Virus record (IMG/VR): IMGVR_UViG_3300022907_000007
Span: 10,743-74,742 of that record
Origin: a virus
Reading direction: 5' to 3' (one strand)
DNA: 64,000 nucleotides
Below, one piece after another: positions 1 through 14,708 of this stretch (position 1 is the first letter of the stretch; each line of letters begins with the position of its first letter). A program made the translations under genes and the position numbers. Below the pieces are notes generated by a model. It was not told the DNA's origin, made no database searches, and saw only the letters and a list, made by a program, of their open reading frames with translations.

Positions 1-2
1 AG

Positions 3-2180
3 CCAATCATTATTGAAGTAGCGGATGCGTGTAATACAAATGTTAATTCGGCTTTAGATTTAATTGACAATACAGATACGTTACTGAGCGAGAAAGCGTT
101 AGGTGTTGCTATTCGCAAAGGGCTGAACAAGGCTACTCAGCCTACACGATTTAGGGATATGTTTCTTGAAGGCGTAATCAACGGTTACCTTTCAGGCTTT
201 GGTACTCCTATTGCAAACGCTATCTCTATTGGTGTTCAAAACTTTACAGCACCAACTCTTGAAGCTATTGGTGCATTGACTGATACGTTGCGTGTAACTA
301 ACAGAGCACGTAATGCGGCAGGAGAATTACTTAAACCTAATCGTGAACTACGTGATGCTGTTGCTATGTTTGAAGCGGCAATGGAGGGGTTTGGTGCGGA
401 CATTATGTTCCTCAAGCAAGGATGGAAGAGTGGTTATCCTCTTGATGTAAACAGGTCATCTGCATCTCTTGCACGTCAACTAGGTGTCAGTACAGCAGAA
501 GCGCGTAAGGTAATTATCAAAGAGATTGCCGCAACTAAAGCGGCAAAAGCATTTGCTGAACCAGACAACACATCCACAATGGATCAATTAACTAAAGGCT
601 TCACTGCTCAAATGCAGAAGGAAGGGTTAAACCCTACTGAGTTTGAAGCGTATATGGATGAAGCCTATGATTATATCTCAGGTCATATTCCATCTAAGTT
701 TGGTGGCAAGATTATCCGTTGGCCTACTCGCGCAACAGTTGCAATTGATGAGTATGGTAAGGCACGTTTTCGTAGACAGAAGATTGCACAGATGGCATCT
801 GTCAAGGCGCGTGAGGATGAAGCAAAAGGACTTGGATCATACCGTGATCTGTATAACCAGTATCGTAAGGACTCATTGAGATCAGTCGATGAAGTTAAGG
901 CTGATGAGATTGAAGAAGTCTTTGGCCGCATGAAGATGGATATTGGTAAAGTCTTTGGTCAATCAGATGATGACATGACTCCATACGGTAGCATCAAAGA
1001 GTTTGCATTACGTCAGACGTTTCAGTCTCCCTTGTTCGGTGCGGCTAAAGCGGCACAGGATATTAGACGTGACCATGCATTCGTTGCTTACTTTGTACCG
1101 TTCATTAAGACACCATGGAACATCCTAAAAGAAGGTACATCATTTGTTCCTGGGCTAGGTTACGCATTACGTCCTGCTTATTTGAAGGGTGCAGTGCCTG
1201 TCAAGATGTCTAATGATGAGCTTATTCCTAGACAGATTCTAGGGGCTACAATGTTTGCAGGAGTCGGTGCTATGTTTGCTAGTGGTAATATCACTGGCTC
1301 TCCTAGAAATGCAGATGAAGCGCAAGCATGGAAGGATCAAGGCATTCAACCTTTCTCAATTAAGATAGGGGATAGTTGGGTTTCGTATCAGCGGATTGAA
1401 CCTATCGCTACAGTGCTTGGTCTTGCGGCTGACTTGTTACGTCTAACCGATGAGTATGTTCAGAACCCTGATCTTGATGCGTCATTCTTGGATGAAGCGG
1501 CAAAGCCTACACTTGTAGCAATCAAGGCAAACATCTTAAGTAAGTCATTCATGGAAGGGTTCTCAAATATCCTTGAGGTTATGTCAGACCCTGCTCGATA
1601 TGCTGAATCATTCATGGCATCTACATTACGTCCACTGTCTCCTGCAGTATTAAACATGGTTGCCCGCGCAACTGATCCATATGAACGTCTTGCAACAACA
1701 CCCGTCGAGAAGTTACAACAACGCTTCCCGTTCCTGCGTCAAGACTTACCAGTGGAGTACGGTGCAATTGGAGGTCCGCGTGAGACTAACTTTACACAGG
1801 CAGTTACTGGCTTTGGGATTACATCAGGGCCAGAGACAATGCTACAACAAGAGCTTGCTGATCTGAACTATACAAAGGGGCGTGTAGGAGATACCATTAT
1901 GCGCGTTGGTTTAACAACAGCACAGCTTGGTGAGTTCCGTATGATGTCTGCTGAGATGCTGACTCCTATACTAGATCGCTTTATTAACTCAGCGACATAC
2001 AGGAATGCAACTAATTCTAGACGTAAGGTACTACTTGATAAGATTACAGGACAAGTGCAGAACGCAGTGCGTAGGAAATACTTTGCACAGTTGCGGAAGC
2101 AAGACCCAGAGGTTGCACGTAAGTTCTACAATCAGGAGATCTTGAAGAGAGGACTAGAGGAACAAGTACCACTCCGCTAG
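3..2180 (+). CDS. Large internal virion/ejection protein, C-terminal part (LPD38-like); 5' end lies outside the window
   Basis: Frame open from position 3; motifs FVPFIKTPWNILKEG, GNITGS and QPFSIKIGDSWVSYQRIEP typical of podovirus internal virion proteins. Confidence 0.65.
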   Translation, partial: PIIIEVADACNTNVNSALDLIDNTDTLLSEKALGVAIRKGLNKATQPTRFRDMFLEGVINGYLSGFGTPIANAISIGVQNFTAPTLEAIGALTDTLRVTNRARNAAGELLKPNRELRDAVAMFEAAMEGFGADIMFLKQGWKSGYPLDVNRSSASLARQLGVSTAEARKVIIKEIAATKAAKAFAEPDNTSTMDQLTKGFTAQMQKEGLNPTEFEAYMDEAYDYISGHIPSKFGGKIIRWPTRATVAIDEYGKARFRRQKIAQMASVKAREDEAKGLGSYRDLYNQYRKDSLRSVDEVKADEIEEVFGRMKMDIGKVFGQSDDDMTPYGSIKEFALRQTFQSPLFGAAKAAQDIRRDHAFVAYFVPFIKTPWNILKEGTSFVPGLGYALRPAYLKGAVPVKMSNDELIPRQILGATMFAGVGAMFASGNITGSPRNADEAQAWKDQGIQPFSIKIGDSWVSYQRIEPIATVLGLAADLLRLTDEYVQNPDLDASFLDEAAKPTLVAIKANILSKSFMEGFSNILEVMSDPARYAESFMASTLRPLSPAVLNMVARATDPYERLATTPVEKLQQRFPFLRQDLPVEYGAIGGPRETNFTQAVTGFGITSGPETMLQQELADLNYTKGRVGDTIMRVGLTTAQLGEFRMMSAEMLTPILDRFINSATYRNATNSRRKVLLDKITGQVQNAVRRKYFAQLRKQDPEVARKFYNQEILKRGLEEQVPLR

Positions 2181-2196
2181 GTTAACTTGGTTAACC
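2180..2196 (+). repeat. Double-GTTAAC motif copy 1 (GGTTAACTTGGTTAACC)
   Basis: Direct reading; abuts the stop codon of the internal virion protein gene. Confidence 0.9.
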
Positions 2197-2199
2197 TCT

Positions 2200-2224
2200 A
2201 AAAAGAACCCCGCCGAAGCGGGGC
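2200..2224 (-). terminator. Intrinsic terminator of the leftward replication operon
   Basis: Minus strand GCCCCGC-TTCG-GCGGGGT followed by TCTTTTT. Confidence 0.85.
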
Positions 2225-2244
2225 AAGTTCCACTGGAGGGTGGT

Positions 2245-2442
2245 TCAGTCGTCAACAAGTCCGTAGACACTGCCGACCATAATCTTTACAAAAGGTATAT
2301 TGAAGATGTATCCATCAAAGAAGTAGATAGTTGCGTCTTCTTCTGATTCTCCATGCTGACGACCGTACACAGGCTGTGCTTCCACAGACTCAACAGACAG
2401 TCCAAAGACGTGCCAAAAACTAAACTGTACTACCATCCCCAA
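2245..2442 (-). CDS. Hypothetical protein
   Basis: ORF overlapping the nrdB stop; last gene before the terminator. Confidence 0.55.
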   Translation of the reverse strand: MGMVVQFSFWHVFGLSVESVEAQPVYGRQHGESEEDATIYFFDGYIFNIPFVKIMVGSVYGLVDD

Positions 2443-3383
2443 TCATCTCCATCTAATCCATGTGCATTGTAATCAGTCACTCGCTTCTCAAAGAAGTTAC
2501 TCATAGAGCTACCTCCAAGAATCTCCTCCATCCACGGTAGAGGGTTCTCCTTAACCTTCCAGTTTGTCTTGAGACCAAGTTGCAGTAGTCGTCTGTCTGC
2601 GAGATAACGAATGTACTGCTTGACATCTGCCGACGACAGACCTTCCAAGTCACCCATCTCATACGCAAGATCAATAACCTTGTCTTCAAGTTTGACTGCA
2701 GTACGGAACATCTCGTAGATATCTTTCTTGAAATCGTCGTTAACGATTCGTGGATGTTCATTACAATACTCCCTGAATAACTTAGCCATCCCCTCTGCGT
2801 GTTGTGACTCATCACGTACTGACCACTCAACAACAGTACACATACCCGGCATCTTACCATAGCGTTGATAGTTAAGTAGCATCGCAAATGCTGAGAACAA
2901 ACTCATACCTTCATTCAACACTGAGCGTGCAATTGCAAGGGCTGTACCGCTTATAGAAGTTACGTCTAATCCGGACATGAACTCCAGTTTTGCAGACATT
3001 TGCTCATACTCTAAGAACGCTGTGAACTCCTCTTCCGGAAGTCCGAGAGTGTCATTGAGTAAGGCATATGCTCGTTGATGGATGAACTCACGAGAAGCAA
3101 AGGCTGTGAGCATGGCTCTAATCTCATTGTTCTTGAACTTGGGAATATAATACTCAAGATAGTTTGTTCCAACCGCCACGTCTGTCTGCGTAAATAACCG
3201 CAAGATCTGGGTGATATGGTTCTTCTCGCTCTCCGATAGTGCGCCTGACTTCCAGTGTGATACATCTGTTTGTAACTCTAACTCATCCTCAATCCAGTGG
3301 ATACGCTCATGCTCTGTGGCATACGTAACAGCCCAAGGGTAGTTGAATGGTTTATAACTTTTGCTCTGTTCCTGCAAGCTCAT
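2430..3383 (-). CDS. nrdB: Ribonucleotide reductase class I, beta subunit
   Basis: Ferritin-like motifs FTQTD, EFIHQRAY, EG..LFSAF, RDESQH, NFFEKRVTDY. Confidence 0.95.
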   Translation of the reverse strand: MSLQEQSKSYKPFNYPWAVTYATEHERIHWIEDELELQTDVSHWKSGALSESEKNHITQILRLFTQTDVAVGTNYLEYYIPKFKNNEIRAMLTAFASREFIHQRAYALLNDTLGLPEEEFTAFLEYEQMSAKLEFMSGLDVTSISGTALAIARSVLNEGMSLFSAFAMLLNYQRYGKMPGMCTVVEWSVRDESQHAEGMAKLFREYCNEHPRIVNDDFKKDIYEMFRTAVKLEDKVIDLAYEMGDLEGLSSADVKQYIRYLADRRLLQLGLKTNWKVKENPLPWMEEILGGSSMSNFFEKRVTDYNAHGLDGDDWGW

Positions 3384-3516
3384 ATAGTTGTCTCTCCAGT
3401 GTGTCCAGTTTATTGGACAAGTCTATGATTGTGTCGTATGCGTCATTTAATAATTGTTTATTGAAAGGGTCTATGTCTTTGACCAGTTCAATTCTCTCTA
3501 GTATATTGGTTTGCAT
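3352..3516 (-). CDS. Hypothetical 54-aa protein (MQTNILERIELVKD...)
   Basis: Manually translated ORF filling the nrdA-nrdB gap. Confidence 0.5.
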   Translation of the reverse strand: MQTNILERIELVKDIDPFNKQLLNDAYDTIIDLSNKLDTLERQLYELAGTEQKL

Positions 3517-3522
3517 AGTCCC

Positions 3523-5280
3523 CTATCCCTGACAACTCACACAGACATCATCGTCTTCAAAGTCTTTCAACGCATTACGGTCCACTTTAGTCCCAACCTT
3601 CTCCGCTGTAACACCTGCAGTCGTGCGTAAATAATATAATCCTTTAAGCCCTTCCTTCCACGCCTTGAGGTGTACCTGATTGACAATAGCCTTGTCAGTA
3701 CCCGATGGAAAGAACACGTTAACACTCTGCCCTTGACATATAAACTCTTGTCTTTTAGCTGAGTGTTCGACAACCCACCCCTGATCGAGTTCAAATGCTG
3801 TCTTAAATGTAGCCTTCTCGTCGTCGGATAGGAACTCCAAGTGCTGTACAGAGCCTTCATTCTCAAGAATACTTTGCCATATCTTCTTGGTGTTCTTTCC
3901 TTTGTCATCTAAAAGTTCCTCCAAGTACGGATTGCGAACAGTATGACTCCCGGCACGAGTACGATGGACAAAGCAGTTGCTAAGACGTGGTTCAATGCTA
4001 GCAGAGCACCCACATAGGATACTAGAATTAGCGTTAGGAGCAATAGCCAACAGATGCATATTTCTAATACCATAACCCACCCCATCAGGACACTCACCAC
4101 GTCCCACAGCGAGCGAGTACGTGGCCTCAAGTGCTTGGGATTTGATGTCCTTGAAGAGGTTGTAGTTTTCACTCGCCGCTTGCCATGACTCCCAAGCTAT
4201 GCCTTTGCCTTGGAGGTAGCCGTGGAAGCCCATTGCTCCAAGACCGACTGAGCGTTCTCTGTAAGCTGAGTAGACAGCTTTTGATAGTTCTTCTGGTGCG
4301 TTGTCAATAAAGAATTGAAGGACGTTGTCCAAGAATCTGATAAGGTCTCCAACCATGCCGCTTGATTTCCAGTCATCGTATCGCTCAAGGTTGACTGAGG
4401 AGAGGCAACAGACTGCTGTGCGTTCTTCACTTGTTGCGAGATGGATTTCGTTGCAGAGGTTACTGCCATTAATTGACAGTCCAAGTTTTCTTTGAGCTTC
4501 CGGTAAACCTCTTCTGGCTGTGTCGATAAAGTTAAGGTAAGGACTGCCAGTTCTGAAGCGAGCTTCAAGTATTCGTTGCCAAAGTTTACGAGCTTGGATT
4601 GTATCTCTAACAATTCCTGTGTTGGGATCAACAAGGTTCCATTCTGTTCCATTGATTACACACTCCATAAAATCATCTGTGATATTCACAGCATTAAAAA
4701 GATTAAAACATTTGCGGTTGATGTCACCACCAGTCGCTACTTTAAAGTTGATGAACTCCTCGATATCAGGATGGCTTACGTCTAGGTACGCCGCGTAGCT
4801 TCCCTTCCGTGTCTTCCCCTGTTTGTACGCTGTCATCTGTGCGTCCACTACTTTCATGAACGGTATCGGTCCCGGTGCTTTGTCGGAGATCCCTCTCACG
4901 TCTGACCAATGCCCACCCACACCTCCGCCCTTTACGGAAAGCCATGCTACTTCACCATTGTGTTCAATAAGGCTGTCAAGAGAGTCAGCCACATAAGTAA
5001 GGAAGCAACTAATAGGCAAGCCACTAATCCTTCCGTTCGGTTCTGGGGCATTAGATAAGACAGGCGACGCAAACATGAACCAACCCTTTGAGGCATAGTC
5101 ATAAATACGTTGTGCCAAATCCAGATCCCCATCGCAGTAAGCCACTGCCGCGCGAGCAAACGCCTGCTGAGGAGACTGCTCATGAGCAAGCATATAGTAA
5201 TCTTGCATGAGCGTAGTCGCTTGGTCACTGAGGCGAAAGTCTCTTTCATAGTCAATCGTTATCCCAAGGTGTTGAGTCAT
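3523..5280 (-). CDS. nrdA: Ribonucleotide reductase class I, alpha subunit (no ATP cone)
   Basis: PISCF, GGGVG, SNLCNEI, VCCLSS, APNANSS, LKGLYYLR and C-terminal CVSCQG; start chosen by RBS spacing. Confidence 0.95.
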   Translation of the reverse strand: MTQHLGITIDYERDFRLSDQATTLMQDYYMLAHEQSPQQAFARAAVAYCDGDLDLAQRIYDYASKGWFMFASPVLSNAPEPNGRISGLPISCFLTYVADSLDSLIEHNGEVAWLSVKGGGVGGHWSDVRGISDKAPGPIPFMKVVDAQMTAYKQGKTRKGSYAAYLDVSHPDIEEFINFKVATGGDINRKCFNLFNAVNITDDFMECVINGTEWNLVDPNTGIVRDTIQARKLWQRILEARFRTGSPYLNFIDTARRGLPEAQRKLGLSINGSNLCNEIHLATSEERTAVCCLSSVNLERYDDWKSSGMVGDLIRFLDNVLQFFIDNAPEELSKAVYSAYRERSVGLGAMGFHGYLQGKGIAWESWQAASENYNLFKDIKSQALEATYSLAVGRGECPDGVGYGIRNMHLLAIAPNANSSILCGCSASIEPRLSNCFVHRTRAGSHTVRNPYLEELLDDKGKNTKKIWQSILENEGSVQHLEFLSDDEKATFKTAFELDQGWVVEHSAKRQEFICQGQSVNVFFPSGTDKAIVNQVHLKAWKEGLKGLYYLRTTAGVTAEKVGTKVDRNALKDFEDDDVCVSCQG

Positions 5281-5428
5281 CGAAATCATTCTCCAGTGTA
5301 TCTTGTTTTTGTTCAATCAGGTCAGAGAACCTGTCAACCAAATCTTCAGAGGTGAGTTCTAATGTTTCCATCAGAGTCACCTCATCCAACTGCTTGAGTT
5401 TATCTTTAATATCTTCAAGCGTAAGCAT
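5252..5428 (-). CDS. Hypothetical acidic 58-aa protein (MLTLEDIKDKLKQLDE...)
   Basis: Manually translated ORF filling the gap. Confidence 0.55.
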   Translation of the reverse strand: MLTLEDIKDKLKQLDEVTLMETLELTSEDLVDRFSDLIEQKQDTLENDFDDSTPWDND

Positions 5429-5433
5429 CTATT

Positions 5434-5664
5434 TTACCACACTTCTATGAGTTTGTCAAGGTAATGTTTGCACTTTTGTAAGTCTAACACGCCACCTTTA
5501 TCCTGAAAGCGAGCAATGTATTTGATCACATTACCAATTAGGAAACCTTTGAACTGCTCTTCAGTCATCCATTCCTGCATAGCATCCCAAGGCTGTACCT
5601 TCTTGTCGGTGTAGTGTGTGCCACCAAGCTGATAGTTCCTAGCCATCTCATTTAAGTCAGGCAT
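5434..5664 (-). CDS. DUF3310-family protein (T7 gp1.7-like)
   Basis: GGTHY...QPWD...GNVIKYIAR..KGG..DLQKCKHYL. Confidence 0.8.
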   Translation of the reverse strand: MPDLNEMARNYQLGGTHYTDKKVQPWDAMQEWMTEEQFKGFLIGNVIKYIARFQDKGGVLDLQKCKHYLDKLIEVW

Positions 5665-6418
5665 AACGCTCCCTCAAATAATTGATAGACACTGGCATCT
5701 CATCGAACGTACCTTCCATTACCTCATGTAACATCCAGATACCAGACCATGATCCATTAGTCTGCGGGTTCAGATACTCTTCATCATGTTGATAATAGAT
5801 ACCTGCAAACAGACCAGTGATTCGTTTACCATCAGCGCGTCGAGCGTAAGAGATACTACGATCCTGTACGTGACCCATCACACATGACATATGTTGCTTA
5901 TTGATTAGTGCATTAGAAGAACTTACTGGTCTTCCCATAACACCACTAACAAAATAATGGCTGTAACAGACACCATCAATAACCACAGGTTGTAAGAAAT
6001 CATACACTTCCCATCCCATCTCTGTCAAGTACAGATCATCAAAGGACATGAGACCTTCTAGCTTAGGGTCTGCATTGATAGCGCGAGCAATACGATACTC
6101 ATGGTTACCTAATGTAAATACTAAGCGAGGGTTCCACTGCTTGTCTTTGTTACGCTTGAGTCTATCTTGTTCCTTACGAATAGGATCAAGGAACTCTTGC
6201 ATTGCCTCGACACCTGCATTGATGTCATTGATGTATCGCCTACCTTCAAACGATTTCTTACCGACATCATAGGTAGATAGACTAGGCATATCAAAATGAT
6301 CACCGATGTGTACGATTACATCAGGCTTCTTCTCTACGGCATATTCTCCTGCCCAACGCAGATGGCTAGTCGGATGATCCGGCTTCACTTGCGTGTCAGG
6401 TATGACCATATGTTTCAT
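5657..6418 (-). CDS. Calcineurin-like metallophosphoesterase
   Basis: IPDTQ, HIGDHFD, LGNHE, GHVQ motifs. Confidence 0.85.
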   Translation of the reverse strand: MKHMVIPDTQVKPDHPTSHLRWAGEYAVEKKPDVIVHIGDHFDMPSLSTYDVGKKSFEGRRYINDINAGVEAMQEFLDPIRKEQDRLKRNKDKQWNPRLVFTLGNHEYRIARAINADPKLEGLMSFDDLYLTEMGWEVYDFLQPVVIDGVCYSHYFVSGVMGRPVSSSNALINKQHMSCVMGHVQDRSISYARRADGKRITGLFAGIYYQHDEEYLNPQTNGSWSGIWMLHEVMEGTFDEMPVSINYLRERYA

Positions 6419-6419
6419 A

Positions 6420-6773
6420 TCAGTCTCCTGTGGTTAACTTGGTTAACCTCAACAATTCAAAAAAGTGTTCGGCATCTAAGACTGCGAGAGGTCTTCGTCT
6501 GTTTTCTTTAACGATGACAAGTGGCTGTGCATCACCTCGATTGTTGCACTGGTCAACAAAACGATAGACTCCAACTCTCGCAAGGCTTTTGCATTCGACA
6601 TCATACGTGAAAGACTTGCGAGCCAGAGGGCTAAGTTGAACATCACTGCCACTAACACCCATACTGGTTGATCTAACATCATCACTCTCCAGATGCGGGA
6701 ACGTCTGTAGTATCTGTTCCGCTGTCCATTGTTGTAGTTTCCTTCCCTTTGCTTTCGCGCTCTGTGTCTTCAC
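6420..6773 (-). CDS. Holliday-junction resolvase-like PD-(D/E)xK nuclease
   Basis: SAKAKGR.LQ, G.D, VECK and PLVIVKENR motifs; GTG start inferred. Confidence 0.7.
   Translation of the reverse strand: MKTQSAKAKGRKLQQWTAEQILQTFPHLESDDVRSTSMGVSGSDVQLSPLARKSFTYDVECKSLARVGVYRFVDQCNNRGDAQPLVIVKENRRRPLAVLDAEHFFELLRLTKLTTGD
6432..6448 (+). repeat. Double-GTTAAC motif copy 2
   Basis: GGTTAACTTGGTTAACC; directly upstream of the RBS of the 6418 gene. Confidence 0.9.
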
Positions 6774-7911: not shown

Positions 7912-9532
7912 ACCAAGTCTTACCAATTTTAGACTCGGCATCTACTGGGCATCGAAAGCCCAAGGTAAGCCCTGCTTGTGAGGCAGAGTCGCACATGATC
8001 TGTGCAACCTCTTCACCATACTTCTCCTCTGTTTCAATTTGAATTTCATCGTGTACAAATGCAACCTGTCGCACAGGTAAGCAAAGTCGCTTAAACTTTT
8101 GGTGTGCTTCAATACACCACTGCTTTGCAATGATAGCCCCACAACCTTGAAGGAGGCTGTTGAGTGCGGCGTGCTCAGATCTAACAATGATCCTTCTACC
8201 ATCCAACCCCGGTACGTACCCTTTGCTCGCCACTTTCTTAACTTTTTCCATAAGTCTTGATAACGCAGGGGTGTTAGCATAAAAGCGCGACAAGACCTCT
8301 TGCCCCTGACGCGCACCTCCCCCGACAATACTACCAATCTTTGCGGGTCCCGCGCCGTAAAGGGTTGCATAGATGAGAGTCTTAGCCTGCGGTCTCGTAA
8401 TGCCTGCGGCATCTGCGTTCTTCTGATGGATATCTCCATTCAATAACTCCTCTGTCCACTCATCATCCTGCATATAATGGGCAAGACATCTCAACTCGAT
8501 CCCGCTTAAGTCCGTGCCGCATAAGACATGACCATCATCAACAGTCCACAGACCACGACACTCAGGTCCATACTCACTGTTGACACTGGGGATTTGTCCC
8601 ATGTTTGGTTTTTGGTGGGTCATACGTCCAGTAACAGCACCATTAGTAATCACCCTACCATGTACCCTGCCGTCATCCTTGAGGTTATCAATCCATGACT
8701 CAAGCAAACCGACACGCTTCTGTATCATCAGGTACTCAGCGATCAACTGCGCTTCAGGCAGATCAATAGCCTTGAGTGTACCCTCATCAACTATGATAGT
8801 ACCTTTCTCAGTCTTCTTAGTAAACTTAACACCACGCTCCTGAAGACGCTGTGCGATCTGTTGTCTTGACCCCACATTGAATACGGTAACCCCATCTTTG
8901 AGACGCTTGCCTGTCTTCTCTGACCAACGCTCTTCCACAATCGGAGGAAATATATTTTGCAAGTGATCAGTAATATAAGCCATTCGATCTTTAAGTTGAG
9001 CCAACAAAGTGATAGCTTCTTTCTCGTTGAGTTTGAATCCATTGTCCTCTTGCCTCTTCATAATAAAAGCGATGCTGTGTTCCAGATCAATAGACACACT
9101 GTAGTCTTCTAGTTCTTTGCACAATTGTTTGTACAACTTGACTGTTAAGTTCACGTCTTGAGAACAATACTCAACCATCTGTTCAGTAAGACCGCCATTG
9201 AAATCAGTGAAGTCCTGTTTGTAATCACCAAGACGTTCGCCCCATGCACGTAGACTATGGCCACCCTCCAGTTGTGGATTCCATAGCCTTGACATGACCA
9301 GAGTATCACGAACTTTGGAGAGGGGAATCTTTACTCCCCAAATCCGTGACAACACTGGCCCGTCAAACCCAATGATGTTGTGACCTACTACTACATCAGC
9401 CTTGTCCACTAGCTCTTGGACTTTCTGTGCGTTTGTGTATACAGATGTATAACTGTCGTAGTTACATCCACAGCACCAGATTCTGTCGTGCGTTAGGTTG
9501 GTCTCAATGTCGAGTACCAATACCTTCATCAT
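7898..9532 (-). CDS. Family A DNA polymerase with 3'-5' exonuclease (T7 gp5-like, Tyr at the 762-equivalent position)
   Basis: LDIET, HNIIGFD, DLSGIELR, KTLIYATLYG, VHDE. Confidence 0.95.
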   Translation of the reverse strand: MMKVLVLDIETNLTHDRIWCCGCNYDSYTSVYTNAQKVQELVDKADVVVGHNIIGFDGPVLSRIWGVKIPLSKVRDTLVMSRLWNPQLEGGHSLRAWGERLGDYKQDFTDFNGGLTEQMVEYCSQDVNLTVKLYKQLCKELEDYSVSIDLEHSIAFIMKRQEDNGFKLNEKEAITLLAQLKDRMAYITDHLQNIFPPIVEERWSEKTGKRLKDGVTVFNVGSRQQIAQRLQERGVKFTKKTEKGTIIVDEGTLKAIDLPEAQLIAEYLMIQKRVGLLESWIDNLKDDGRVHGRVITNGAVTGRMTHQKPNMGQIPSVNSEYGPECRGLWTVDDGHVLCGTDLSGIELRCLAHYMQDDEWTEELLNGDIHQKNADAAGITRPQAKTLIYATLYGAGPAKIGSIVGGGARQGQEVLSRFYANTPALSRLMEKVKKVASKGYVPGLDGRRIIVRSEHAALNSLLQGCGAIIAKQWCIEAHQKFKRLCLPVRQVAFVHDEIQIETEEKYGEEVAQIMCDSASQAGLTLGFRCPVDAESKIGKTWFDTH

Positions 9533-11139
9533 AACTCCTCATCTTTTACCTCAGTCATTCTACCTGTTGCGTGAGTATAAAGCAAGCTACAAGCAGGACC
9601 AGTGATACCACAGAAACGATTCTTCAGTACCCGCACGCGAGTGGTATTACGCTCAGTGATATCCTCAGCCTGACCGTTACGCTCCAGACCAATCACCATG
9701 TCAGATAGCTGTGCGATAGAACCAGAGCCACGCAACTGTGCCAGTGATGTAGCTGTCCCTTCCTCATGTCCCTTACCTTCAGGACGCTTGAGGTGTGAGA
9801 CACAGATAAGACATATACCTGTCTCTTGCACCAACATCCGGAGCTTGGTCATGATCTCATCTATCGCTTTACGTTCGTCACCACTGGCTTGAGCAGACAC
9901 CACGATACTAATATGATCGAGAAATATATAACTACACCCCAATCCTTTAGCAAGATATCGGACACGATTAATAATGTTATCGACGCTAGTGCTACCGAAA
10001 TGGTCAAAGAGATATATGCGATCAGTCCCAAGAGTTTTGCTAAAAGCATCACGCTTCTCCTCTTCAGTGGCATCTGAGTCTGGTAGATGCAGTGGTTGAT
10101 TTGCCGCAAGCGACATGATAGACAGCGCAGACTTCCGCACTGACTCCTCTAAGAACATCAGACCTACGTTGTCCTCTGTCTTATTCAAGATGTGCCATAC
10201 AATCTCTCGCACAAACTGTGACTTACCTAGTCCAGATCCTGCAGTGATAGTCACTAGCTCACCCTTACGTACACCATAGGTTAACTTGGTTAACCCTGCG
10301 AATGGGTAATCACAGTCCGATGGGGCAACAGGTTTCATTACCTCCTCAAGCAGAGTACCACCCGCAACAATACCATCAGGTACGTGCTGTTCAGAAGACC
10401 ACCACTTGTCAGTGAACTCCTTCATCTTCTTGTTCTGAAGATAGTCGCACGCATCCTTCATACCATCGAGGTGCATAAAGACTTTGGCTTTACTACCAAA
10501 GATCTCTGCCGCCTGTGATGCCGCACGCTTGCCTGCATCGTCACCGTCAAAGCAGATCACGACGTTGTCAAAGGAATCTAACCACTCATACTGAGCGCGG
10601 ATGTCTTTGGCGGCAGAGGCCGCACCGTTCCGTACCGAAACCACCGGATACTTAGACCCTAGCATTTGGTATGCCGCCATCGCATCGAACTCTCCCTCAA
10701 CAATGGTGACGTACTTACCACCCTTGCTGAATAGATTCTGTCCGTACAGCACAGCACTCTTCCAGTCACCTGCGATTGAGAACTGCTTGTCCTCTGCACG
10801 TTCCTTCTGTGCCACGAGTTGACCACTCGCATTACAGTAGCCAAAGAATGTAGTGCCGTCAGCGACAGAGCACTTGTATGCCTTGGCGGTATCGCTACTG
10901 ATACCACGGTCAATAATTGTACGATACCCTGCGTCTTGGAACTTAGACAGTTGAGTATCAGTCAGTTGTTTAGCTTCCACCTGTACCTCCCTATGGGTTG
11001 GTGTGTAATCGTCGCTCTGTGAGCCTGTGTATGCCTCGCAGACAAAGCAAAAGGATGAACCGTCATCGTTGTATGACAGCCCATCGCTTGAGCCACAGTC
11101 ACTGCATGGTTGGTGCGTCTTGACAAATGGCACGCTCAT
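9529..11139 (-). CDS. Primase-helicase (T7 gp4-like)
   Basis: CxxC..CxxC zinc finger, TOPRIM EGEFD/FDGD, Walker A GSGLGKS, LRGSGSIAQLSD, KNR. Confidence 0.95.
   Translation of the reverse strand: MSVPFVKTHQPCSDCGSSDGLSYNDDGSSFCFVCEAYTGSQSDDYTPTHREVQVEAKQLTDTQLSKFQDAGYRTIIDRGISSDTAKAYKCSVADGTTFFGYCNASGQLVAQKERAEDKQFSIAGDWKSAVLYGQNLFSKGGKYVTIVEGEFDAMAAYQMLGSKYPVVSVRNGAASAAKDIRAQYEWLDSFDNVVICFDGDDAGKRAASQAAEIFGSKAKVFMHLDGMKDACDYLQNKKMKEFTDKWWSSEQHVPDGIVAGGTLLEEVMKPVAPSDCDYPFAGLTKLTYGVRKGELVTITAGSGLGKSQFVREIVWHILNKTEDNVGLMFLEESVRKSALSIMSLAANQPLHLPDSDATEEEKRDAFSKTLGTDRIYLFDHFGSTSVDNIINRVRYLAKGLGCSYIFLDHISIVVSAQASGDERKAIDEIMTKLRMLVQETGICLICVSHLKRPEGKGHEEGTATSLAQLRGSGSIAQLSDMVIGLERNGQAEDITERNTTRVRVLKNRFCGITGPACSLLYTHATGRMTEVKDEEL
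10279..10295 (+). repeat. Double-GTTAAC motif copy 3 (inside primase-helicase)
   Basis: GGTTAACTTGGTTAACC. Confidence 0.9.
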
Positions 11140-11338
11140 TCTCCTTGTAGAAATCTGCCATCAATGATAGCGCATATGACTCCTTGTTGTCAGCGCAGTA
11201 GTCTGCAAGAGAAGTCAGCACTCGATGTAATCCATAACGATAAATCAAATCGCAAGTGTCAACAAGAACTTGATGTTGAATCATCTCTTCCATCGCAAGA
11301 GTAAAATCGTCAACAGGAATATTTAAATCTTTATACAC
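11099..11338 (-). CDS. Hypothetical protein
   Basis: ORF with AGGAG RBS, coupled to the primase gene. Confidence 0.6.
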   Translation of the reverse strand: MYKDLNIPVDDFTLAMEEMIQHQVLVDTCDLIYRYGLHRVLTSLADYCADNKESYALSLMADFYKENERAICQDAPTMQ

Positions 11339-11410
11339 TTCAGCACTCCTAAGTAGATGTAAGAGATAACTAAGATAATAATTATCTCTTGCATATGTCT
11401 TTAAAGTAAT

Positions 11411-11439
11411 ATTATATCACGAATCAGGACGAAAGTCTG
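11411..11439 (-). promoter_or_regulatory. Extended -10 sigma-70 promoter for the replication operon
   Basis: TGaTATAAT with weak -35; followed by an AAGAGATAA/TTATCTCTT leader hairpin. Confidence 0.55.
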
Positions 11440-11614
11440 CTTGAAAAAGATCATCATCATCTTCATGCATTAGATCCATTCGCTCGACAGCCTTTACCTC
11501 ATCCTTAACAAAGGTATAACAATGATTGCATAAGTCTATGAATTCATTGGTCTCAGCACTCTTGCGTGTGGACTCAAAGTCTGTCAGTTCTACGTTACAC
11601 GATAGGCATCTCAC
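11417..11614 (-). CDS. Small zinc-finger protein (CxxC...CxxC) with acidic tail
   Basis: RCLSC...LCNHC; GTG start after AAGGAG. Confidence 0.65.
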   Translation of the reverse strand: MRCLSCNVELTDFESTRKSAETNEFIDLCNHCYTFVKDEVKAVERMDLMHEDDDDLFQADFRPDS

Positions 11615-11650
11615 AACTGTGCGCTCCTTATTAAGTACAGTAAGATGACT

Positions 11651-11679
11651 AGTATAACACACCCGAATAAAAATCTCAA
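11651..11679 (-). promoter_or_regulatory. Sigma-70 promoter
   Basis: TTGAGA-17 bp-TATACT with extended TG. Confidence 0.7.
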
Positions 11680-11909
11680 ACGTGACTCCACGCCCCATCA
11701 CGGGCATTGACAATTTCCCACACACGTTGCTTGCTGATGCCAAACTTCTCACCGATAGCCCGCTGAGATAGGCTGTCAAGTTTTTCTTTGGCGCGTATGC
11801 GCTCTTGATTCAACTCAAGAATCAATCGAACATCGCTCTCATCAATCTTTGCGTTGTGATGCTTCGATCCGCGTGGTGCATAAGGACGATCTGTATCATA
11901 ATTAGCCAT
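11676..11909 (-). CDS. Stand-alone HTH DNA-binding protein resembling the C-terminal domain of HNH homing endonucleases
   Basis: RGSKHHNAKI...SQRAIGEKFGISKQRVWEIVN...W.HV. Confidence 0.65.
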   Translation of the reverse strand: MANYDTDRPYAPRGSKHHNAKIDESDVRLILELNQERIRAKEKLDSLSQRAIGEKFGISKQRVWEIVNARDGAWSHV

Positions 11910-11931
11910 TGTGTTCTACCTTGTATATACA

Positions 11932-11963
11932 AAAAAAATACGAGGTTAACTTGGTTAACCCCG
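11932..11963 (-). terminator. Probable intrinsic terminator whose stem is double-GTTAAC motif copy 4 (11944-11960)
   Basis: Minus strand CGGGGTTAAC-CAA-GTTAACCTCG then TATTTTTTTT. Confidence 0.65.
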
Positions 11964-11969
11964 CGAGTG

Positions 11970-12257
11970 TTATTCGTAACTTACCTCTTCCATTTTCATT
12001 GATGGTCCTTCATCCACAACATAACGCCAGATCTCTCTGTCTGTTCCACACATCCACTTGACTTCCTCGATGAACCCTTGTGGCAAACTCTGGCTGTAGT
12101 CTTCCAACTCAACAGACTGCAAGTGCCATGAGTCAGGGATATCATAACCCTTCTCAAACTTCCACACGACATTGAGACAGAACTCATTGTCCTCTGGGTC
12201 ATACCACCAATGAGTACCGTAATACTCATGACCATCTTTGTATAAGCTAGTTGACAT
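11970..12257 (-). CDS. Hypothetical acidic early protein
   Basis: ORF in the tightly packed early operon. Confidence 0.6.
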   Translation of the reverse strand: MSTSLYKDGHEYYGTHWWYDPEDNEFCLNVVWKFEKGYDIPDSWHLQSVELEDYSQSLPQGFIEEVKWMCGTDREIWRYVVDEGPSMKMEEVSYE

Positions 12258-12600
12258 ACATCACCCCATACATTCTACCTACTTCATCACGGGTCATAAA
12301 CTTGTGGTCAATGTCCGCAACATCCTCTGCATCAAGCCATGCATCCTTGGAGTTACCTCCCGCATCAATACCAAGGAACAACACACGACCTGCATACGGA
12401 TCAGGGTATATATCAGGGGCATACCAGAACTCAGACTCCTCATGTAACCCATTGTCATTGACATAGATTGCATCACCGCCCTCATCATAACCACCACTGC
12501 AGAAGATATCACACTGCAAATGCTTACTGATATCTGTGTAGTCATTCACTTCTACATTCTCAATCGTCTTGAGATATGGATCTACTAATACTGCTTTCAT
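12247..12600 (-). CDS. DUF3846-like early protein
   Basis: MKAVLVDP...IYVNDNGL...YAGRVLFLG pattern. Confidence 0.6.
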   Translation of the reverse strand: MKAVLVDPYLKTIENVEVNDYTDISKHLQCDIFCSGGYDEGGDAIYVNDNGLHEESEFWYAPDIYPDPYAGRVLFLGIDAGGNSKDAWLDAEDVADIDHKFMTRDEVGRMYGVMYVN

Positions 12601-12830
12601 TACTTCACCTCTGCTATCAAACCGTCACTCATTGTGACCTGTGCAAAAAACTCACGACCTTTGTTAGTCGTAAGCTGTGGTCTGTTAGAGCCTGTCAACA
12701 CACCATTAGGTCTGTACTCTGGACCAAAGTAGGATGTCTCAGTGTAGTTAAGACGCTGACCAATATGCTCACGCATTTCTTTCTTGCTACTGTAATTGAA
12801 TATCATCATGGTTATGTACCTATATGTCAT
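12600..12830 (-). CDS. Hypothetical early protein (alternative start 12809)
   Basis: ORF coupled to the next gene. Confidence 0.6.
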   Translation of the reverse strand: MTYRYITMMIFNYSSKKEMREHIGQRLNYTETSYFGPEYRPNGVLTGSNRPQLTTNKGREFFAQVTMSDGLIAEVK

Positions 12831-12877
12831 ACACTTTTAAAGACAAGCAGTTTTACATCATGCTCAGGATGGGAGGA

Positions 12878-13507
12878 TTAACCGATCAGCGCGGCAACGT
12901 GCATCTGAGATACTTCATTGCCATCTGCAAAACGCCCACGGTTACATGGCTTGTAAACTAATTGCTCACACCATGAGTCCCACAGTTTCTCTGTACTACG
13001 ATTGACCTTGCACAGGCTGACGTAGTTCATCAGCTTAGCAAACTTAGTCTGCGGCTTGGTGATGTCAGAGAATGTAAAGTCTTTGGGATCTACCTTGCGG
13101 AATCGTCGCAAGTTATGCACATCAAAACAACCAACACGACCGAACATCATCTGCATGACAAAGCCTGCCTTGACAGCGCGGAGTCCAGGCACTTCGACAA
13201 GACGCAACAACATCGCCGCATCTTTCTGATCCTGAGTACCACCAAACTCTTTCTTCGGTGACATCCACAACTGCATGAGATCATCATACAATTCCTTGCC
13301 GTGTTCTTGCAGATAATTGTGAGTGTCAATCTTGAATCCCCACACATACTTAGAGTTAACTTGGTTAACCCTGTAGTCGTCCATCTGACGCTTCATCGTA
13401 TGGAATGGTGTCTTCACAGACAGCACAACAAACATAATACCCATGCTCATTTGCTCATGGTTCTCTTGCATATACGCATTGATAATTGGATTATGATTCT
13501 TGAACAT
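12878..13507 (-). CDS. HhH-GPD superfamily (DNA glycosylase-like) protein
   Basis: LVEVPGLRAVKAGF...GCFDVHNLR resembles HhH hairpin plus catalytic D-x-H. Confidence 0.55.
   Translation of the reverse strand: MFKNHNPIINAYMQENHEQMSMGIMFVVLSVKTPFHTMKRQMDDYRVNQVNSKYVWGFKIDTHNYLQEHGKELYDDLMQLWMSPKKEFGGTQDQKDAAMLLRLVEVPGLRAVKAGFVMQMMFGRVGCFDVHNLRRFRKVDPKDFTFSDITKPQTKFAKLMNYVSLCKVNRSTEKLWDSWCEQLVYKPCNRGRFADGNEVSQMHVAALIG
13354..13370 (+). repeat. Double-GTTAAC motif copy 5
   Basis: AGTTAACTTGGTTAACC within the CDS. Confidence 0.9.
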
Positions 13508-13605
13508 TATTTTAACCCTCTCAAGAAATTAGAAATAACTTGGGACAGCAAATGCGCCGCCCCAATAAAGGCCAACAGGCCAAGCCACAGTACAAAGAAC
13601 TCCAT
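13507..13605 (-). CDS. 32-aa hydrophobic membrane peptide
   Basis: MEFFVLWLGLLAFIGAAHLLSQVISNFLRGLK; start and stop overlap both neighbours. Confidence 0.55.
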   Translation of the reverse strand: MEFFVLWLGLLAFIGAAHLLSQVISNFLRGLK

Positions 13606-13898
13606 CAGTCTTGAAACTCCGGAGTGTCTATCCCTTCATATGCTTCCATGATCTGACGACAATGAGTGTGAAAGAACTCTTGCATTCTTGTCTCAAGATC
13701 ACGAGCTTGATCATACGATAACTCACGCGCAACATGACGTATCGCCCAATAAGCACCACCAATCTTGCAACTCACGCGAGGCTCGAAAGTCTTCGGTTCG
13801 TTGTAAGCCACAGCATATTTATCAACGTCTTCAGGTCTTGTAATATCCTCAACAACTTCGCTGATGAACGCACCAAGTAATGTTTTAACTGTAATCAT
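13605..13898 (-). CDS. Hypothetical early protein
   Basis: GGAGG RBS upstream. Confidence 0.65.
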   Translation of the reverse strand: MITVKTLLGAFISEVVEDITRPEDVDKYAVAYNEPKTFEPRVSCKIGGAYWAIRHVARELSYDQARDLETRMQEFFHTHCRQIMEAYEGIDTPEFQD

Positions 13899-13914
13899 TT
13901 TGCAACCCTCCACA

Positions 13915-13931
13915 GGTTAACCAAGTTAACT
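13915..13931 (-). repeat. Double-GTTAAC motif copy 6 (opposite orientation)
   Basis: GGTTAACCAAGTTAACT on +; immediately upstream of an RBS. Confidence 0.9.
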
Positions 13932-14024
13932 TCACAGCCGGAATGCATACTGTCGCCCGACTGTGTAAGCACAGTATAACACAGCAGACCCAGTAAATCC
14001 GGCGTAAAAAAATTTATTTTAGAC

Positions 14025-14048
14025 AAAGAAAAAGGGGCTTTCGCCCCT
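14025..14048 (-). terminator. Intrinsic terminator after the first early gene
   Basis: AGGGGC-GAAA-GCCCCT-TTTTCTTT on minus strand. Confidence 0.8.
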
Positions 14049-14055
14049 CTCTCGA

Positions 14056-14595
14056 TTATGCCGCTTTCGGTGCGGCGGTCAGTTCCTTGAATGCTTTCTG
14101 GATATCGGCTTGGCTGTATCCCTCCTCGAATGCTTTCTCGATCAGTGCATTCATCTTCTCGCCGAGATCCCATTTCTTTGGTTGCGCCTCATCCCCTTCG
14201 GCTTCGCGGCAGAGTCCGGCCAGTGCGTTGATATTGGTGGCGCCCTTGAATTCTTGAACGACCATTGTCTTACCTTCGCCATTTCCCCATAGTTCGGGTT
14301 GCTCCTGTTGCTTTTTGCGGATGCCTAGTGCAAAATCTAGGATGCATTTTCTCGCTGATTTCAGCGCCTTGATGCTTTTCTTATCCCGTCCGGACGCGAG
14401 TAACATGGAATCAAAATCAGCGCAATAGGCCTTAATGATATCTTTGTCGAGGTTAACCGAGTTAACCATGTCAATCATGTTATCCACTTGCTTACCATCA
14501 GTAGAGTTTACAATCAACTCCACATCAGTATTCAAGAACTTCGCGTAAGACGCACCTTTCCCATCGAATTGAATCGCTTCGTTTTTAGTAGTCAT
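14056..14595 (-). CDS. First early gene, hypothetical 179-aa protein
   Basis: Own promoter, GGAGG RBS and terminator. Confidence 0.75.
   Translation of the reverse strand: MTTKNEAIQFDGKGASYAKFLNTDVELIVNSTDGKQVDNMIDMVNSVNLDKDIIKAYCADFDSMLLASGRDKKSIKALKSARKCILDFALGIRKKQQEQPELWGNGEGKTMVVQEFKGATNINALAGLCREAEGDEAQPKKWDLGEKMNALIEKAFEEGYSQADIQKAFKELTAAPKAA
14451..14467 (-). repeat. Double-GTTAAC motif copy 7
   Basis: GGTTAACCGAGTTAACC on +. Confidence 0.9.
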
Positions 14596-14658
14596 GAGAC
14601 CCTCCAGTCTATATATTTACTATTTAATTTATGATCATTTGTTATTGACCATATGTAC

Positions 14659-14686
14659 ATATTACCAGAGTCAGGGTAGATAGCAA
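14659..14686 (-). promoter_or_regulatory. Probable early sigma-70 promoter
   Basis: TTGCTA-16 bp-TAATAT with extended TG. Confidence 0.5.
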
Positions 14687-14691
14687 GCAAT

Positions 14692-14708
14692 TGTTAACCG
14701 AGTTAACC
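14692..14708 (-). repeat. Double-GTTAAC motif copy 8
   Basis: TGTTAACCGAGTTAACC on +; just upstream of the early promoter -35. Confidence 0.9.

Follow-up and report, generated by a model that had tools for sequence, protein, structure and literature searches.

Genomic context of the repeat array

The window, a stretch of 64,000 nucleotides (positions 10,743 to 74,742 of the 74.7-kb IMG/VR record), contains DNA of two phages. About 38 kb of the record belongs to phage A, and a second phage, joined to it at a 125-bp repeat, occupies the window from 27.7 to 64 kb. Phage A is a marine or salt-marsh podovirus-like phage whose nearest cultured relatives, as judged by the primase, are pelagiphages and SIO1-like phages. 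Its early arm encodes, in this order, g1, g3, g4, g5, a DUF3846 protein, g7, the HTH protein g8, g10 and the primase/helicase, followed by PolA, a gp2.5-like SSB, an exonuclease, RusA, a phosphoesterase, a DUF3310 protein, the large and small RNR subunits and g20. The preliminary description had considered a nearby genome end, which is not supported: the region at 14.7 kb is the divergent promoter region that separates the early and late arms, and the ends of the record are arbitrary. The sigma70-type early promoter predicted there matches the consensus and is kept in relatives as TTGCWA-N16/17-TAWTAT together with "gtacatatgg". We saw no lysogeny genes, including an integrase, no repressor-like domain among the scanned early-arm proteins, and no recognizable replication initiator in the early arm.

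Table 1. Window coordinates of the eight repeat copies (M1 to M8) and of neighboring early-arm features.
Feature	Position	Strand	Sequence or product	Context
M1	14693..14707	sense (-)	GTTAAC-TCG-GTTAAC	divergent intergenic region
M2	14452..14466		VNSVN	inside g1, codons 44-48
M3	13916..13930			between g1 terminator and g3; 4 nt upstream of g3 SD GGAGG
M4	13355..13369		VNQVN	inside g4, +138 nt
M5	11945..11959			intergenic g7/g8; top of 11-bp stem followed by T8, intrinsic-terminator-like (11964-11940)
M6	10280..10294		LTKLT	inside primase/helicase gene, start of helicase domain (GLTKLTYGVRKGEL)
M7	6433..6447		LTKLT	last RusA codons; 3 nt upstream of phosphoesterase-gene SD AGGAG
M8	2181..2195			convergent junction; 1 nt after stop of last late-arm gene, just beyond early-arm terminator
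Early/replication arm	2245..14595	-		contains or is bounded by all eight copies
g1	14056..14595	-	179 aa, all-helical orphan; conserved C-terminal ..KAA	first early gene; strong terminator 3'
Predicted early promoter	14659..14686	-	TTGCTA-16-TG-n-TAATAT	sigma70-type
Terminator-like hairpin	14028..14053	-	intrinsic-terminator-like	directly 3' of g1
Early-arm end terminator	2224-2207			adjoins M8

The window contains eight exact matches to GTTAAC-N3-GTTAAC, compared with none in 100 dinucleotide-preserving shuffles, and no ninth copy occurs in the window or in the preceding 10.7 kb of the record. The positions and gaps reported earlier (4252, 3847, 1665, 1410, 561, 536 and 241 bp, with the first start at 2180 when the flanking base is counted) were reproduced exactly. 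On the plus strand, GTTAACNNNGTTAAC matches with the center TTG at M4 to M8, CAA at M3 and CGA at M1 and M2; the sense-strand (minus) centers are accordingly CAA in five copies, TTG in one and TCG in two. The full site is the 17-bp palindrome (G)GTTAAC-NNN-GTTAAC(C), in which the arms are invariant in all eight copies, and the flanking 5' G and 3' C on the sense strand are present in seven and six of the eight, respectively. Because only two weak additional matches appeared when up to three mismatches were allowed, the copies are all-or-none. Lone GTTAAC hexamers outside the array numbered 11, with about 12 expected.

The array extends over 12.5 kb, and no two neighboring sites are closer than 241 bp; five of the eight lie in junction or intergenic DNA, and the probability that all eight fall within 12.5 of the 38.4 kb is about 1e-4. 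We likewise found no copy between 15 and 64 kb, but the motif-free background amounts to about 26 kb rather than 49 kb because the second phage begins at 27.7 kb. In 596 Gb of bacterial genomes, the 17-mer gave only single occurrences at the chance rate, and Rfam 15 had no match at any copy (the sole hit, with E=0.97, was elsewhere). The copies do not belong to the class of intrinsic terminators, which have a GC-rich stem and a U-run: a T-run was sought beside all copies and was absent at seven, only M5 having an extended stem with T8, an arrangement also present in L118, L194 and L199. Nor is there an iteron-type origin with at least three sites within ~200 bp by an AT-rich region; an AT-rich leader is found only between M1 and M2.

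Conservation of the array among related phages

In relatives collected through the primase gene, the arrays occupy the same slots and are found in the early arm only. The recurrence of this confinement in independent relatives bears out the earlier proposal of an early-arm site array. For example, the 34.2-kb genome G001 (93% complete) has six early-arm copies and none in ~21.7 kb of late genes, and G002 is similar. A copy at the M1 slot is present in 10 of the 12 g1-bearing relatives and is degenerate in L117 and L197. M1 stops 6 nt short of the predicted -35 element of the early promoter and 98 nt before the ATG of g1; its center is at about -48, or about -70 in lineages with a G-N-C center, with no overlap of the core promoter. 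The M2 slot is kept in every g1 family-A gene, each with the center triplet of its own lineage, and the M4 slot is also occupied in the G-N-C lineages, where it encodes VNGVN. The center triplet flips between CAA and TTG at orthologous slots, as at M3, where it is TTG in the window phage versus CAA in its closest relative (L194). The M8 slot is conserved in L118, L140 and G001, and L138 has a motif of its own there.

Sister lineages with ~79% primase identity carry other palindromes at the array slots (TTAGTCATGACTAA, TTAAGCATGCTTAA, TTTGTA-N2-TACAAA and TTTCCTAGGAAA), or none. At the M7 junction, for instance, TTAGTCATGACTAA or TTAAGCATGCTTAA is found, and L138, L130 and L133 have no insert. 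The array of L140 has spacers of both 3 and 4 nt, a mixture that a rigid dimer would not easily accommodate. The spacing gradient emphasized in the preliminary description is exact in the window but does not hold as a design feature: strictly monotonic spacing is restricted to the window phage and its closest relative, others show only a looser trend with denser sites near the early promoter, and the gradient partly follows gene size. The early arm is strongly mosaic, with several homology breakpoints at or beside M1, M3 and M5.

Selection on the nucleotide sequence

The intragenic copies are read in different frames, as noted previously, giving one peptide in the primase and the RusA C terminus and others in g4 and g1. 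In all lineages whose primase lacks the M6 site, the protein has G-[LVI]-N-x-L-T at this place, so that the motif displaces an otherwise invariant Asn; the M7 motif lengthens the C terminus of RusA. Synonymous positions within the copies are frozen, and the flanks are variable. The different frames, the frozen synonymous positions and the lost primase Asn together indicate selection on the nucleic acid and not on the protein, in line with the first suggestion. The placement at functional joints was also confirmed, namely after a stop codon (M8), before SD sequences (M3 and M7), in a terminator stem (M5) and beside a promoter (M1).

The first early gene as a candidate for the site-binding protein

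GTTAAC arrays are present in all 18 loci with a g1 family-A gene. Loci without family-A g1 are also without the motif, and L133, whose first gene is unrelated, carries no array of any kind. The g1 proteins with at least 55% identity are associated with the centers CAA, TTG or TCG, and those with 38-48% identity with the G-N-C center, which makes a perfect 7-1-7 palindrome. Only g1 tracks the motif subtype, which is not followed by g3, g4, g5, g7 or the first late protein: g4, for example, is 94% identical to that of L201 versus 54% to that of L117, and the late protein shows 75-99% identity throughout. Since blastn homology to other lineages ends 2 nt before M1 and restarts at the first base of M3 (the L201 block), the variable cassette between M1 and M3 holds g1 alone. 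In a conserved basic helix of g1, K-S-x-x-K, the two variable residues are AR, NR, QI or QT across four motif classes, and QT is shared by L119 and L126, which have very divergent g1 proteins and an identical motif. The correlation between g1 and the motif is partly confounded by shared descent, and a g1 homologue is detectable in four motif classes only.

No Pfam or PHROG family matched g1, and the PDB sequence profile search found nothing. Foldseek searches of the PDB and BFVD gave no match at E<=0.001, and VIA gave Z <=6.4. The protein has no recognizable DNA-binding domain or fold and no helicase-loader or initiator domain, and nothing like the arginine-rich motif of lambda N or a domain of lambda O was detected. 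The HTH protein g8 (11676), which had been proposed as a binder, is not supported in this role, being missing from five loci that retain the array.

Proposed function and alternative explanations

The sites are real, selected at the nucleotide level, restricted to the early arm, conserved in their slots, specific to lineages, and they track g1. On these grounds we favor, with a probability of about 0.5, an array of recognition sites for one phage-encoded, probably dimeric DNA-binding protein, with g1 as the best candidate, that could exert stoperator-like control over the early arm. We infer the binding by g1, double-stranded DNA as its target, and the sign and mode of the regulation. Action at the DNA level is suggested by the dyad symmetry, including the 7-1-7 form, and by the center flips at orthologous slots, as well as by copies that precede the promoter or lie past the terminator of the arm and by the weak predicted RNA hairpins of the sister motifs. 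According to this model, g1 would be made first from the promoter beside M1 and would occupy M1 and M2, bracketing its own promoter and 5' end and thereby regulating itself. It might also occupy the remaining sites, mostly at gene junctions along the arm, plus the far end of the arm. Bound there, g1 would alter the expression of genes further downstream, and the effect would most likely be negative: much as at stoperators, it would stand as a roadblock or insulator in the path of RNA polymerase. The early/replication arm would consequently be timed or shut off, and the specificities of site and protein would have diversified together between sister lineages. Besides the lack of a recognizable DNA-binding domain in g1, the confounding by shared descent, the mixed spacers of L140 and the absence of lysogeny genes, further points count against this model: M1 is off the core promoter, unlike a classical operator; the tight spacing to SD sequences and starts is not required by a pure DNA roadblock and suits a translational operator; and the sense-strand centers are strongly biased (CAA 33, TTG 2, TCG 4).

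The main rival, which we regard as unlikely, is an RNA-level element, in which the early mRNAs would fold the site into a hairpin of 7 bp with a 3-nt loop beside ribosome-binding sites, or a phage protein, for example g1, would bind it there. Such an element could serve as a translational operator, as a stabilizer or insulator between cistrons, or in nut-like antitermination that carries transcription through the terminators at M5 and downstream of g1 and g3. Among 73 copies from 14 loci, 33 (~45%) have an SD within 5 nt or span a start codon, compared with 2.5 expected; in these, the SD follows the motif after 0-5 nt or, in sister lineages, the motif spans the ATG. The count includes an internal SD with GTG in the primase gene. 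Moreover, M5 makes up the core of a terminator stem, a strong terminator follows g1 as with lambda N, the sense center is mostly CAA, and the mixed 3- and 4-nt centers of L140 are easier to reconcile with a loop than with a dimer of fixed spacing. However, about 12 of the 18 slots are not beside any start, the loop flips from CAA to UUG at orthologous slots, and copies of the M8 type are found past the terminator of the arm, just as those of the M1 type precede the predicted promoter. The window-type RNA hairpin has a predicted energy of -5.4 kcal/mol, whereas the sister motifs at shared slots reach only -1.0 to -2.3 kcal/mol, which also disfavors the hairpin or cruciform elements considered in the preliminary description. 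The lack of an Rfam family also counts against an RNA-level element, as do, weakly, RNA-library contigs that cross M2, M3, M4, M6 and M7 unbroken, these being contigs only, with possible DNA carry-over.

A replication element appears improbable. Here, g1 would supply the origin-binding initiator that is missing from a T7-like replisome without a phage RNA polymerase, M1 and M2 would bracket the promoter and a ~45-bp AT-rich leader as the origin, and the other copies would be auxiliary loading or control sites. The unrecognized initiator of the arm and the conserved AT-rich stretch between M1 and M2 accord with such a role; a site inside the putative initiator gene and lineage-specific pairs of protein and site recall lambda O and ori, and the conserved C-terminal ..AA of g1 could be a ClpX-type degron, as in unstable initiators. 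Against it, the sites are spread over 12.5 kb unlike clustered iterons, many copies are exactly at gene starts, g1 has no detected helicase-loader or initiator domain, and the composition profile shows no strand-skew inversion at M1/M2 beyond the change in transcription direction of the arms. Signals for recombination or module exchange, with crossover points for the exonuclease, annealing protein and RusA and an incidental regulatory look, are very improbable: the mosaic arm with its breakpoints and the reported deletions between Cluster O repeats (PMC4351075) would fit, but junction breakpoints are expected in any case, repeats of 15-17 bp within one genome lead mainly to deletions and inversions, and the intragenic copies at an amino-acid cost, the restriction to one arm and the replacement of the motif together with g1 are left unexplained.

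Comparison with known site arrays

The closest described system is the 17-bp, 7-3-7 dyad repeat 5'-TGTTCGG-NNN-CCGAACA of the Cluster O mycobacteriophages (Corndog and its relatives), for which a dimeric DNA-binding protein was inferred and the function left open (PMC4351075). Both systems have invariant 7-bp inverted arms around a 3-bp center with one dominant triplet in both orientations, occur in multiple copies per genome and are absent from the host. Both mix intergenic, 5'-proximal and intragenic copies, those of Cluster O being denser in the leftward non-structural operon, and neither group of phages is obviously temperate. In contrast, the arms are unrelated to TGTTCGG, and the Cluster O phages are Mycobacterium siphoviruses. 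They have more than 30 copies spread over the whole genome, and according to the authors these are not closely tied to translation starts, compared with eight copies within or bounding the 12.5-kb early arm and the association of ~45% with starts here. A lineage-specific motif switch with a co-varying candidate gene is present here; neither was reported for Cluster O.

In the stoperators of the Cluster A mycobacteriophages, one protein, the L5 gp71-type repressor, binds all sites and blocks elongating RNA polymerase (PMC9283540, PMC6550527). As in our array, many copies of a short site lie in short intergenic spaces and at gene boundaries, and repressor and site diverge together between subclusters, much as the g1 sub-family tracks the motif and the center type here, subject to the caveat of shared descent. 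The array cannot be called undescribed as initially claimed, since the Cluster O repeat has an almost identical architecture (PMC4351075) and diverging pairs of binder and site arrays are known from Cluster A (PMC6550527, PMC9283540). However, Cluster A stoperators are 13-bp, asymmetric and oriented with transcription, whereas the present sites are symmetric with a biased but flipping center. Cluster A phages are temperate, with a monomeric two-domain repressor and sites over both arms rather than in the early arm only, and g1 has no detectable similarity to their repressors. Stoperator-like repression, as first suggested, is compatible with the data and is the leading mechanism, but the prophage-silencing role does not transfer directly because no lysogeny genes were seen. 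Taken as a whole, the interpretation given in the preliminary description is partly supported.

The N/nut and O/ori pairs of lambda combine an unstable first early protein with a cognate site that differs between sister phages, the site being in or near its own gene and a terminator following the first gene. A lambda genome contains two nut sites, or four iterons in one cluster, in contrast to the eight dispersed sites here.

The start-associated sequences (SAS) and ESAS of the Cluster K mycobacteriophages are of unknown function, with a protein or RNA factor suspected (PMC3203893). SAS is 13-bp, asymmetric and includes the SD upstream of starts, and ESAS has arms that repeat 17 bp imperfectly and spacers that vary, whereas the present motif is an exact palindrome outside the SD with many copies far from starts.

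A palindromic array confined to the early arm

The preliminary description listed eight copies of GTTAAC-N3-GTTAAC, and a search with GTTAACNNNGTTAAC returned just those eight (M1 to M8, numbered from the divergent promoter region to the arm end) and none in dinucleotide-preserving shuffles. When three mismatches were permitted, just two weak additional matches appeared, and no copy was present in the remainder of the 74,742-bp IMG/VR record outside the window (bases 10743-74742). Every copy is located in, or at either end of, one 12.5-kb arm of phage A, the motif-bearing phage of the record. We verified a 125-bp exact repeat enclosing 36.3 kb with an unrelated second phage gene set, so that two phages are probably joined in the record, as a chimera or a cointegrate. 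Because the repeat would bound this second phage, phage A would be about 38 kb in length.

Table. Arms, motif copies and associated features, in window coordinates.
Feature	Position	Strand	Description
Late arm	15206, round the record, to 2180	opposite to early arm	small AT-hook-like protein first; lysozymes, TerL, portal, capsid, fibres; internal virion protein last
M8	2181	+	TTG centre; 1 nt past the stop codon of the last late gene, just outside the arm-end terminator
Early/replication arm	2245-14595	-	small orphan genes first; T7-like primase/helicase, PolA, gp2.5-like SSB, exonuclease, RusA; phosphoesterase, DUF3310 protein, both RNR subunits
M7	6433	+	TTG centre; final RusA codons, 3 nt upstream of phosphoesterase SD
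M6	10280	+	TTG centre; within primase gene
Primase-internal start	10980	-	in-frame GTG, codon 54; GGAGG SD 5 nt upstream
g8	11676-11909		HTH protein
10-mer ATATACAAGG	11920-11940; 14708-14717	-	about 20 nt downstream of M5, past the T-run; directly upstream of M1
M5	11945	+	TTG centre; top of an 11-bp stem, then T8
M4	13355	+	TTG centre; within g4
M3	13916	opposite	CAA centre; 4 nt upstream of g3 SD
Terminator-like hairpin	14053-14028		strong; directly 3' of g1
g1	14056-14595		first early gene
M2	14452	opposite	CGA centre; within g1
Control region	14596-15205		610 bp, between the arms
M1	14693	opposite	CGA centre; ends 6 nt ahead of predicted sigma70-like promoter TTGCTA-16-TGnTAATAT
Sigma54-type -24/-12 sites	14862-14847; 14837-14822	-	TGGCAC-N5-TTGCA; TGGCAT-N5-TTGCT; tandem
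First late-arm protein	15206-15589	+	127 aa; two N-terminal RGRP AT-hook-like motifs
Exact repeat	27589-27713; 63876-64000		125 bp
Second phage gene set	27.7-64 kb		unrelated to phage A

The non-coding stretch near 14.7 kb had been taken to lie close to a genome end. Since both arms diverge from it, it is a divergent control region rather than a demonstrated physical end. The tandem sigma54-type sites in this region lie some 115-170 bp upstream of M1 and are oriented toward the early arm. They are conserved, as two to three of them also precede g1 in three relatives (L124, L201, L204). We saw no gene for an enhancer-binding protein in the phage. The monotonic shrinking of the gaps toward this region was borne out in the window and in the closest relative, where gaps widen away from the promoter, and is looser in L140, L201, L139 and L204. 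As small genes sit near the promoter, the gradient partly follows gene size, and we treat its strict form as incidental.

The nearest cultured relatives by primase are the Pelagibacter phages HTVC115P and HTVC103P (50-55% amino-acid identity), followed by SIO1-like roseophages (about 46%). HTVC115P has no such array, and megablast of the early arm against cultured phages gave no match.

Related lineages exchange the motif at fixed slots

We compared 80 loci that were retrieved by the primase protein alone, so that the sample is unbiased by motif. The closest relatives (81-82% identity) carry GTTAAC-CAA-GTTAAC, and another set (74-79%) has GTTAAC-G-N-C-GTTAAC, which is a perfect palindrome of the 7-1-7 form. 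In relatives of similar closeness (about 79%) the GTTAAC pair is absent, and several copies of TTAGTCATGACTAA, TTAAGCATRCTTAA or TTTGTA-N2-TACAAA are present instead; farther relatives have AGTTTCCTAGGAAACT or GGTTAATATATTAACC, and part of the loci have no array whatever. The restriction to the early arm recurs in the longer genomes: all six copies of G001 (34.2 kb, 93% complete) are in the early arm, its late genes (about 21.7 kb) being free of the motif, and those of G002 are likewise found only in the early arm.

The copies occupy conserved slots, namely upstream of g1, at g1 +129, upstream of g3, at g4 +138, upstream of g5/g6/g8, at primase +129 and +827, at the RusA/phosphoesterase junction and after the last gene, with occupancy differing from genome to genome. 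The clearest swap is found at the RusA/phosphoesterase junction, where the surrounding protein is 90-98% conserved: some lineages carry a GTTAAC-type site, others carry TTAGTCATGACTAA or TTAAGCATGCTTAA with the central ATG serving as the start codon, and L138, L130 and L133 have no insert at this junction. The motif here makes the RusA tail longer. At primase +827, the protein reads G-[LVI]-N-x-L-T in all lineages that lack the site. Where the site is present it reads G-L-T-K/A-L-T, and every synonymous position is fixed amid drifting flanks. The site thus costs an otherwise invariant primase Asn. As judged from these alignments, selection acts on the nucleic acid.

The first early gene follows the motif type

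A profile search with g1 retrieved 18 loci, all 18 of which have GTTAAC arrays. Homologues at least 55% identical to the window g1 accompany CAA, TTG or TCG centres, and those at 38-48% accompany G-N-C centres. Loci without a g1 of this retrieved family (family A) lack the motif, including L133, whose first gene is unrelated and which has no array. Among the genes of the arm, g1 alone follows the motif type. The early arm is strongly mosaic (window 11972-12241, 13930 and 14709). Nucleotide homology to other lineages ends 2 nt before M1 and restarts at the first base of M3, so that the variable cassette comprises only g1 with its promoter and terminator. This covariation is suggestive of g1 as the candidate binder, although shared descent confounds it.

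The gene encodes 179 aa with a confidently predicted all-helical structure (pLDDT 81). Nothing significant was found in Pfam, PHROGs, Foldseek against PDB and BFVD, VIA wide, a PDB sequence profile or the ESM Atlas, and IMG/VR look-ups for the sub-families P0024 and P0035 returned nothing. The family is small and comprises 33 clusters in a set of 1.8 billion representatives. Its members have a conserved basic helix with the sequence K-S-x-x-K, in which x-x is AR, NR, QI or QT according to which of four motif classes the protein accompanies. L119 and L126, whose g1 proteins have diverged very far, both have QT and carry the same motif. Most members (P0001-P0045) terminate in ..KAA or ..AA after an otherwise variable C-terminal region. 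This end may be a ClpX-type protease recognition tail, which could render g1 short-lived. The first gene of L128 (259 aa, non-homologous-looking) also ends in this manner.

We rejected several other candidate binders. The preliminary description had proposed the HTH protein g8, which gave only weak HTH matches and is missing in five array-bearing loci (L204, L206, L207, L140, L139). The early proteins g3 and g4 and the first late AT-hook-like protein show similarity patterns that depart from the motif type: the window g4 is 94% identical to that of L201 (G-N-C type) versus 54% to that of L117 (CAA type), and identity of the first late protein is 75-99% throughout the lineages, whatever their motif. 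The same holds for g7, 93-96% identical to lineages with wholly different motifs; at the DNA level this block (window 11972-12241) has 92-96% identity to them and stops 13 nt before M5. A host-factor site is unlikely, as the 17-mer occurs in GTDB genomes just singly, at a chance rate. The palindrome is ill-suited to a phage RNA-polymerase promoter at 3-5 nt from an SD, and no RNA polymerase gene was recognised among the window genes that were scanned. A restriction-site effect is rejected because lone GTTAAC hexamers, which are HpaI sites, occur at the expected frequency.

Recognition of the motif as DNA or RNA

The motif could instead act in the RNA or in translation, which we consider less likely. 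Of 73 copies in 14 loci, 33 either precede an SD by 0-5 nt or contain a start codon, compared with 2.5 expected at random positions. One such slot adjoins the SD and GTG inside the primase gene, the sense-strand centre is mainly CAA, and L140 mixes 3- and 4-nt centres, all of which would suit an RNA-level role. However, the dyad symmetry of the sites, perfect in the 7-1-7 form, and the inversion of the centre at orthologous slots favour double-stranded DNA, as do copies upstream of a promoter or past the arm terminator and the location of about two thirds of the slots away from any start. The hairpins that sister motifs would form at these slots are also predicted to be marginal (-1.0 to -2.3 kcal/mol, versus -5.4 kcal/mol for the window type). 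We estimate a probability of about 55-60% for recognition at the DNA level. If so, placement at gene junctions would be partly functional, through control of the downstream gene, and partly a matter of cost, because a fixed 15-17 bp can be accommodated in a C-terminal tail or an N-terminal extension.

The primase-internal GTG would yield a shorter primase/helicase without the N-terminal part, reminiscent of the short form of T7 gp4. Four relatives (L118, L028, L201, L204) have a motif copy 5 nt upstream of this internal SD.

A model for the array

The array is real, selected and conserved, and it is most likely an array of regulator-binding sites, the binder and mechanism of which we infer. 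In our model, g1 would be produced first, bind M1 and M2, which surround its own promoter, and also bind sites at gene junctions along the arm and at its distal boundary. Bound g1 would modulate, and most likely limit, early-arm transcription in a stoperator-like manner. M1 lies upstream of the -35 element (its centre is at about -48 in the window, and about two helical turns farther upstream in G-N-C lineages), so that activation is also conceivable, as is insulation from the sigma54-like sites that lie upstream. A more far-reaching proposal, which we regard as less likely than not, is that g1 founds an unrecognised family of sequence-specific nucleic-acid binders in apparently lytic marine podoviruses. 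Its hallmarks would be the all-helical orphan fold, K-S-x-x-K as recognition helix and ..KAA as a possible degron. Each g1 variant would then form, with its own palindrome array, a fast-diversifying 'specificity cassette' gating the whole early/replication arm at junctions. Competition among co-infecting relatives would drive the diversification, a lytic-phage counterpart of immunity groups.

Relation to known arrays

The closest formal parallel is the 17-bp dyad repeat of Cluster O mycobacteriophages, the function of which has been open since its first description (PMC4351075); it shares the 7-3-7 layout, invariant arms, flipping centre and mixture of intergenic and intragenic sites. The nearest understood functional model is the Cluster A stoperator/repressor system, in which binder and site diverge (PMC9283540, PMC6550527). 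Unlike the array described here, Cluster A stoperators are asymmetric, oriented, genome-wide and found in temperate phages. The association with translation starts resembles Cluster K SAS/ESAS (PMC3203893). The restriction to one arm, the swapping of the motif by sister lineages at fixed slots and the single co-varying orphan gene as candidate binder are new. If our model is true, g1 and the 17-bp palindrome would provide a concrete protein/site pair for Cluster O-type arrays that is cheap to test. Stoperator-like embedded control arrays would then not be peculiar to temperate actinophages and would also work in a marine and salt-marsh podovirus clade that is uncultured and environmentally active. 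Sister lineages that change motif and g1 type at identical slots constitute a ready-made specificity-swap experiment, and the series is a possible source of orthogonal DNA-binding parts.

Additional observations

In a farther relative, an asymmetric 18-mer, CACCAAGAGAGTTAAGTG, occurs five times without mismatch (L159:6100-7480); an ATG follows each copy directly, which makes it start-associated like Cluster K SAS. The 10-mer shared by the M1 and M5 surroundings extends near M5 as ..AAGGTAGAAC, resembling a degenerate half-site, and L118 shows the same 10-mer arrangement. The early arm is 97-98% covered in thirteen DNA runs from salt marsh, and four salt-marsh metatranscriptome libraries (2018) contain contigs of at least 95% identity covering both arms (window 1-20000). 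The phage was abundant in this habitat and possibly active there. The phage contigs from the RNA libraries span several copies of the motif and, being contigs, carry no transcript ends.
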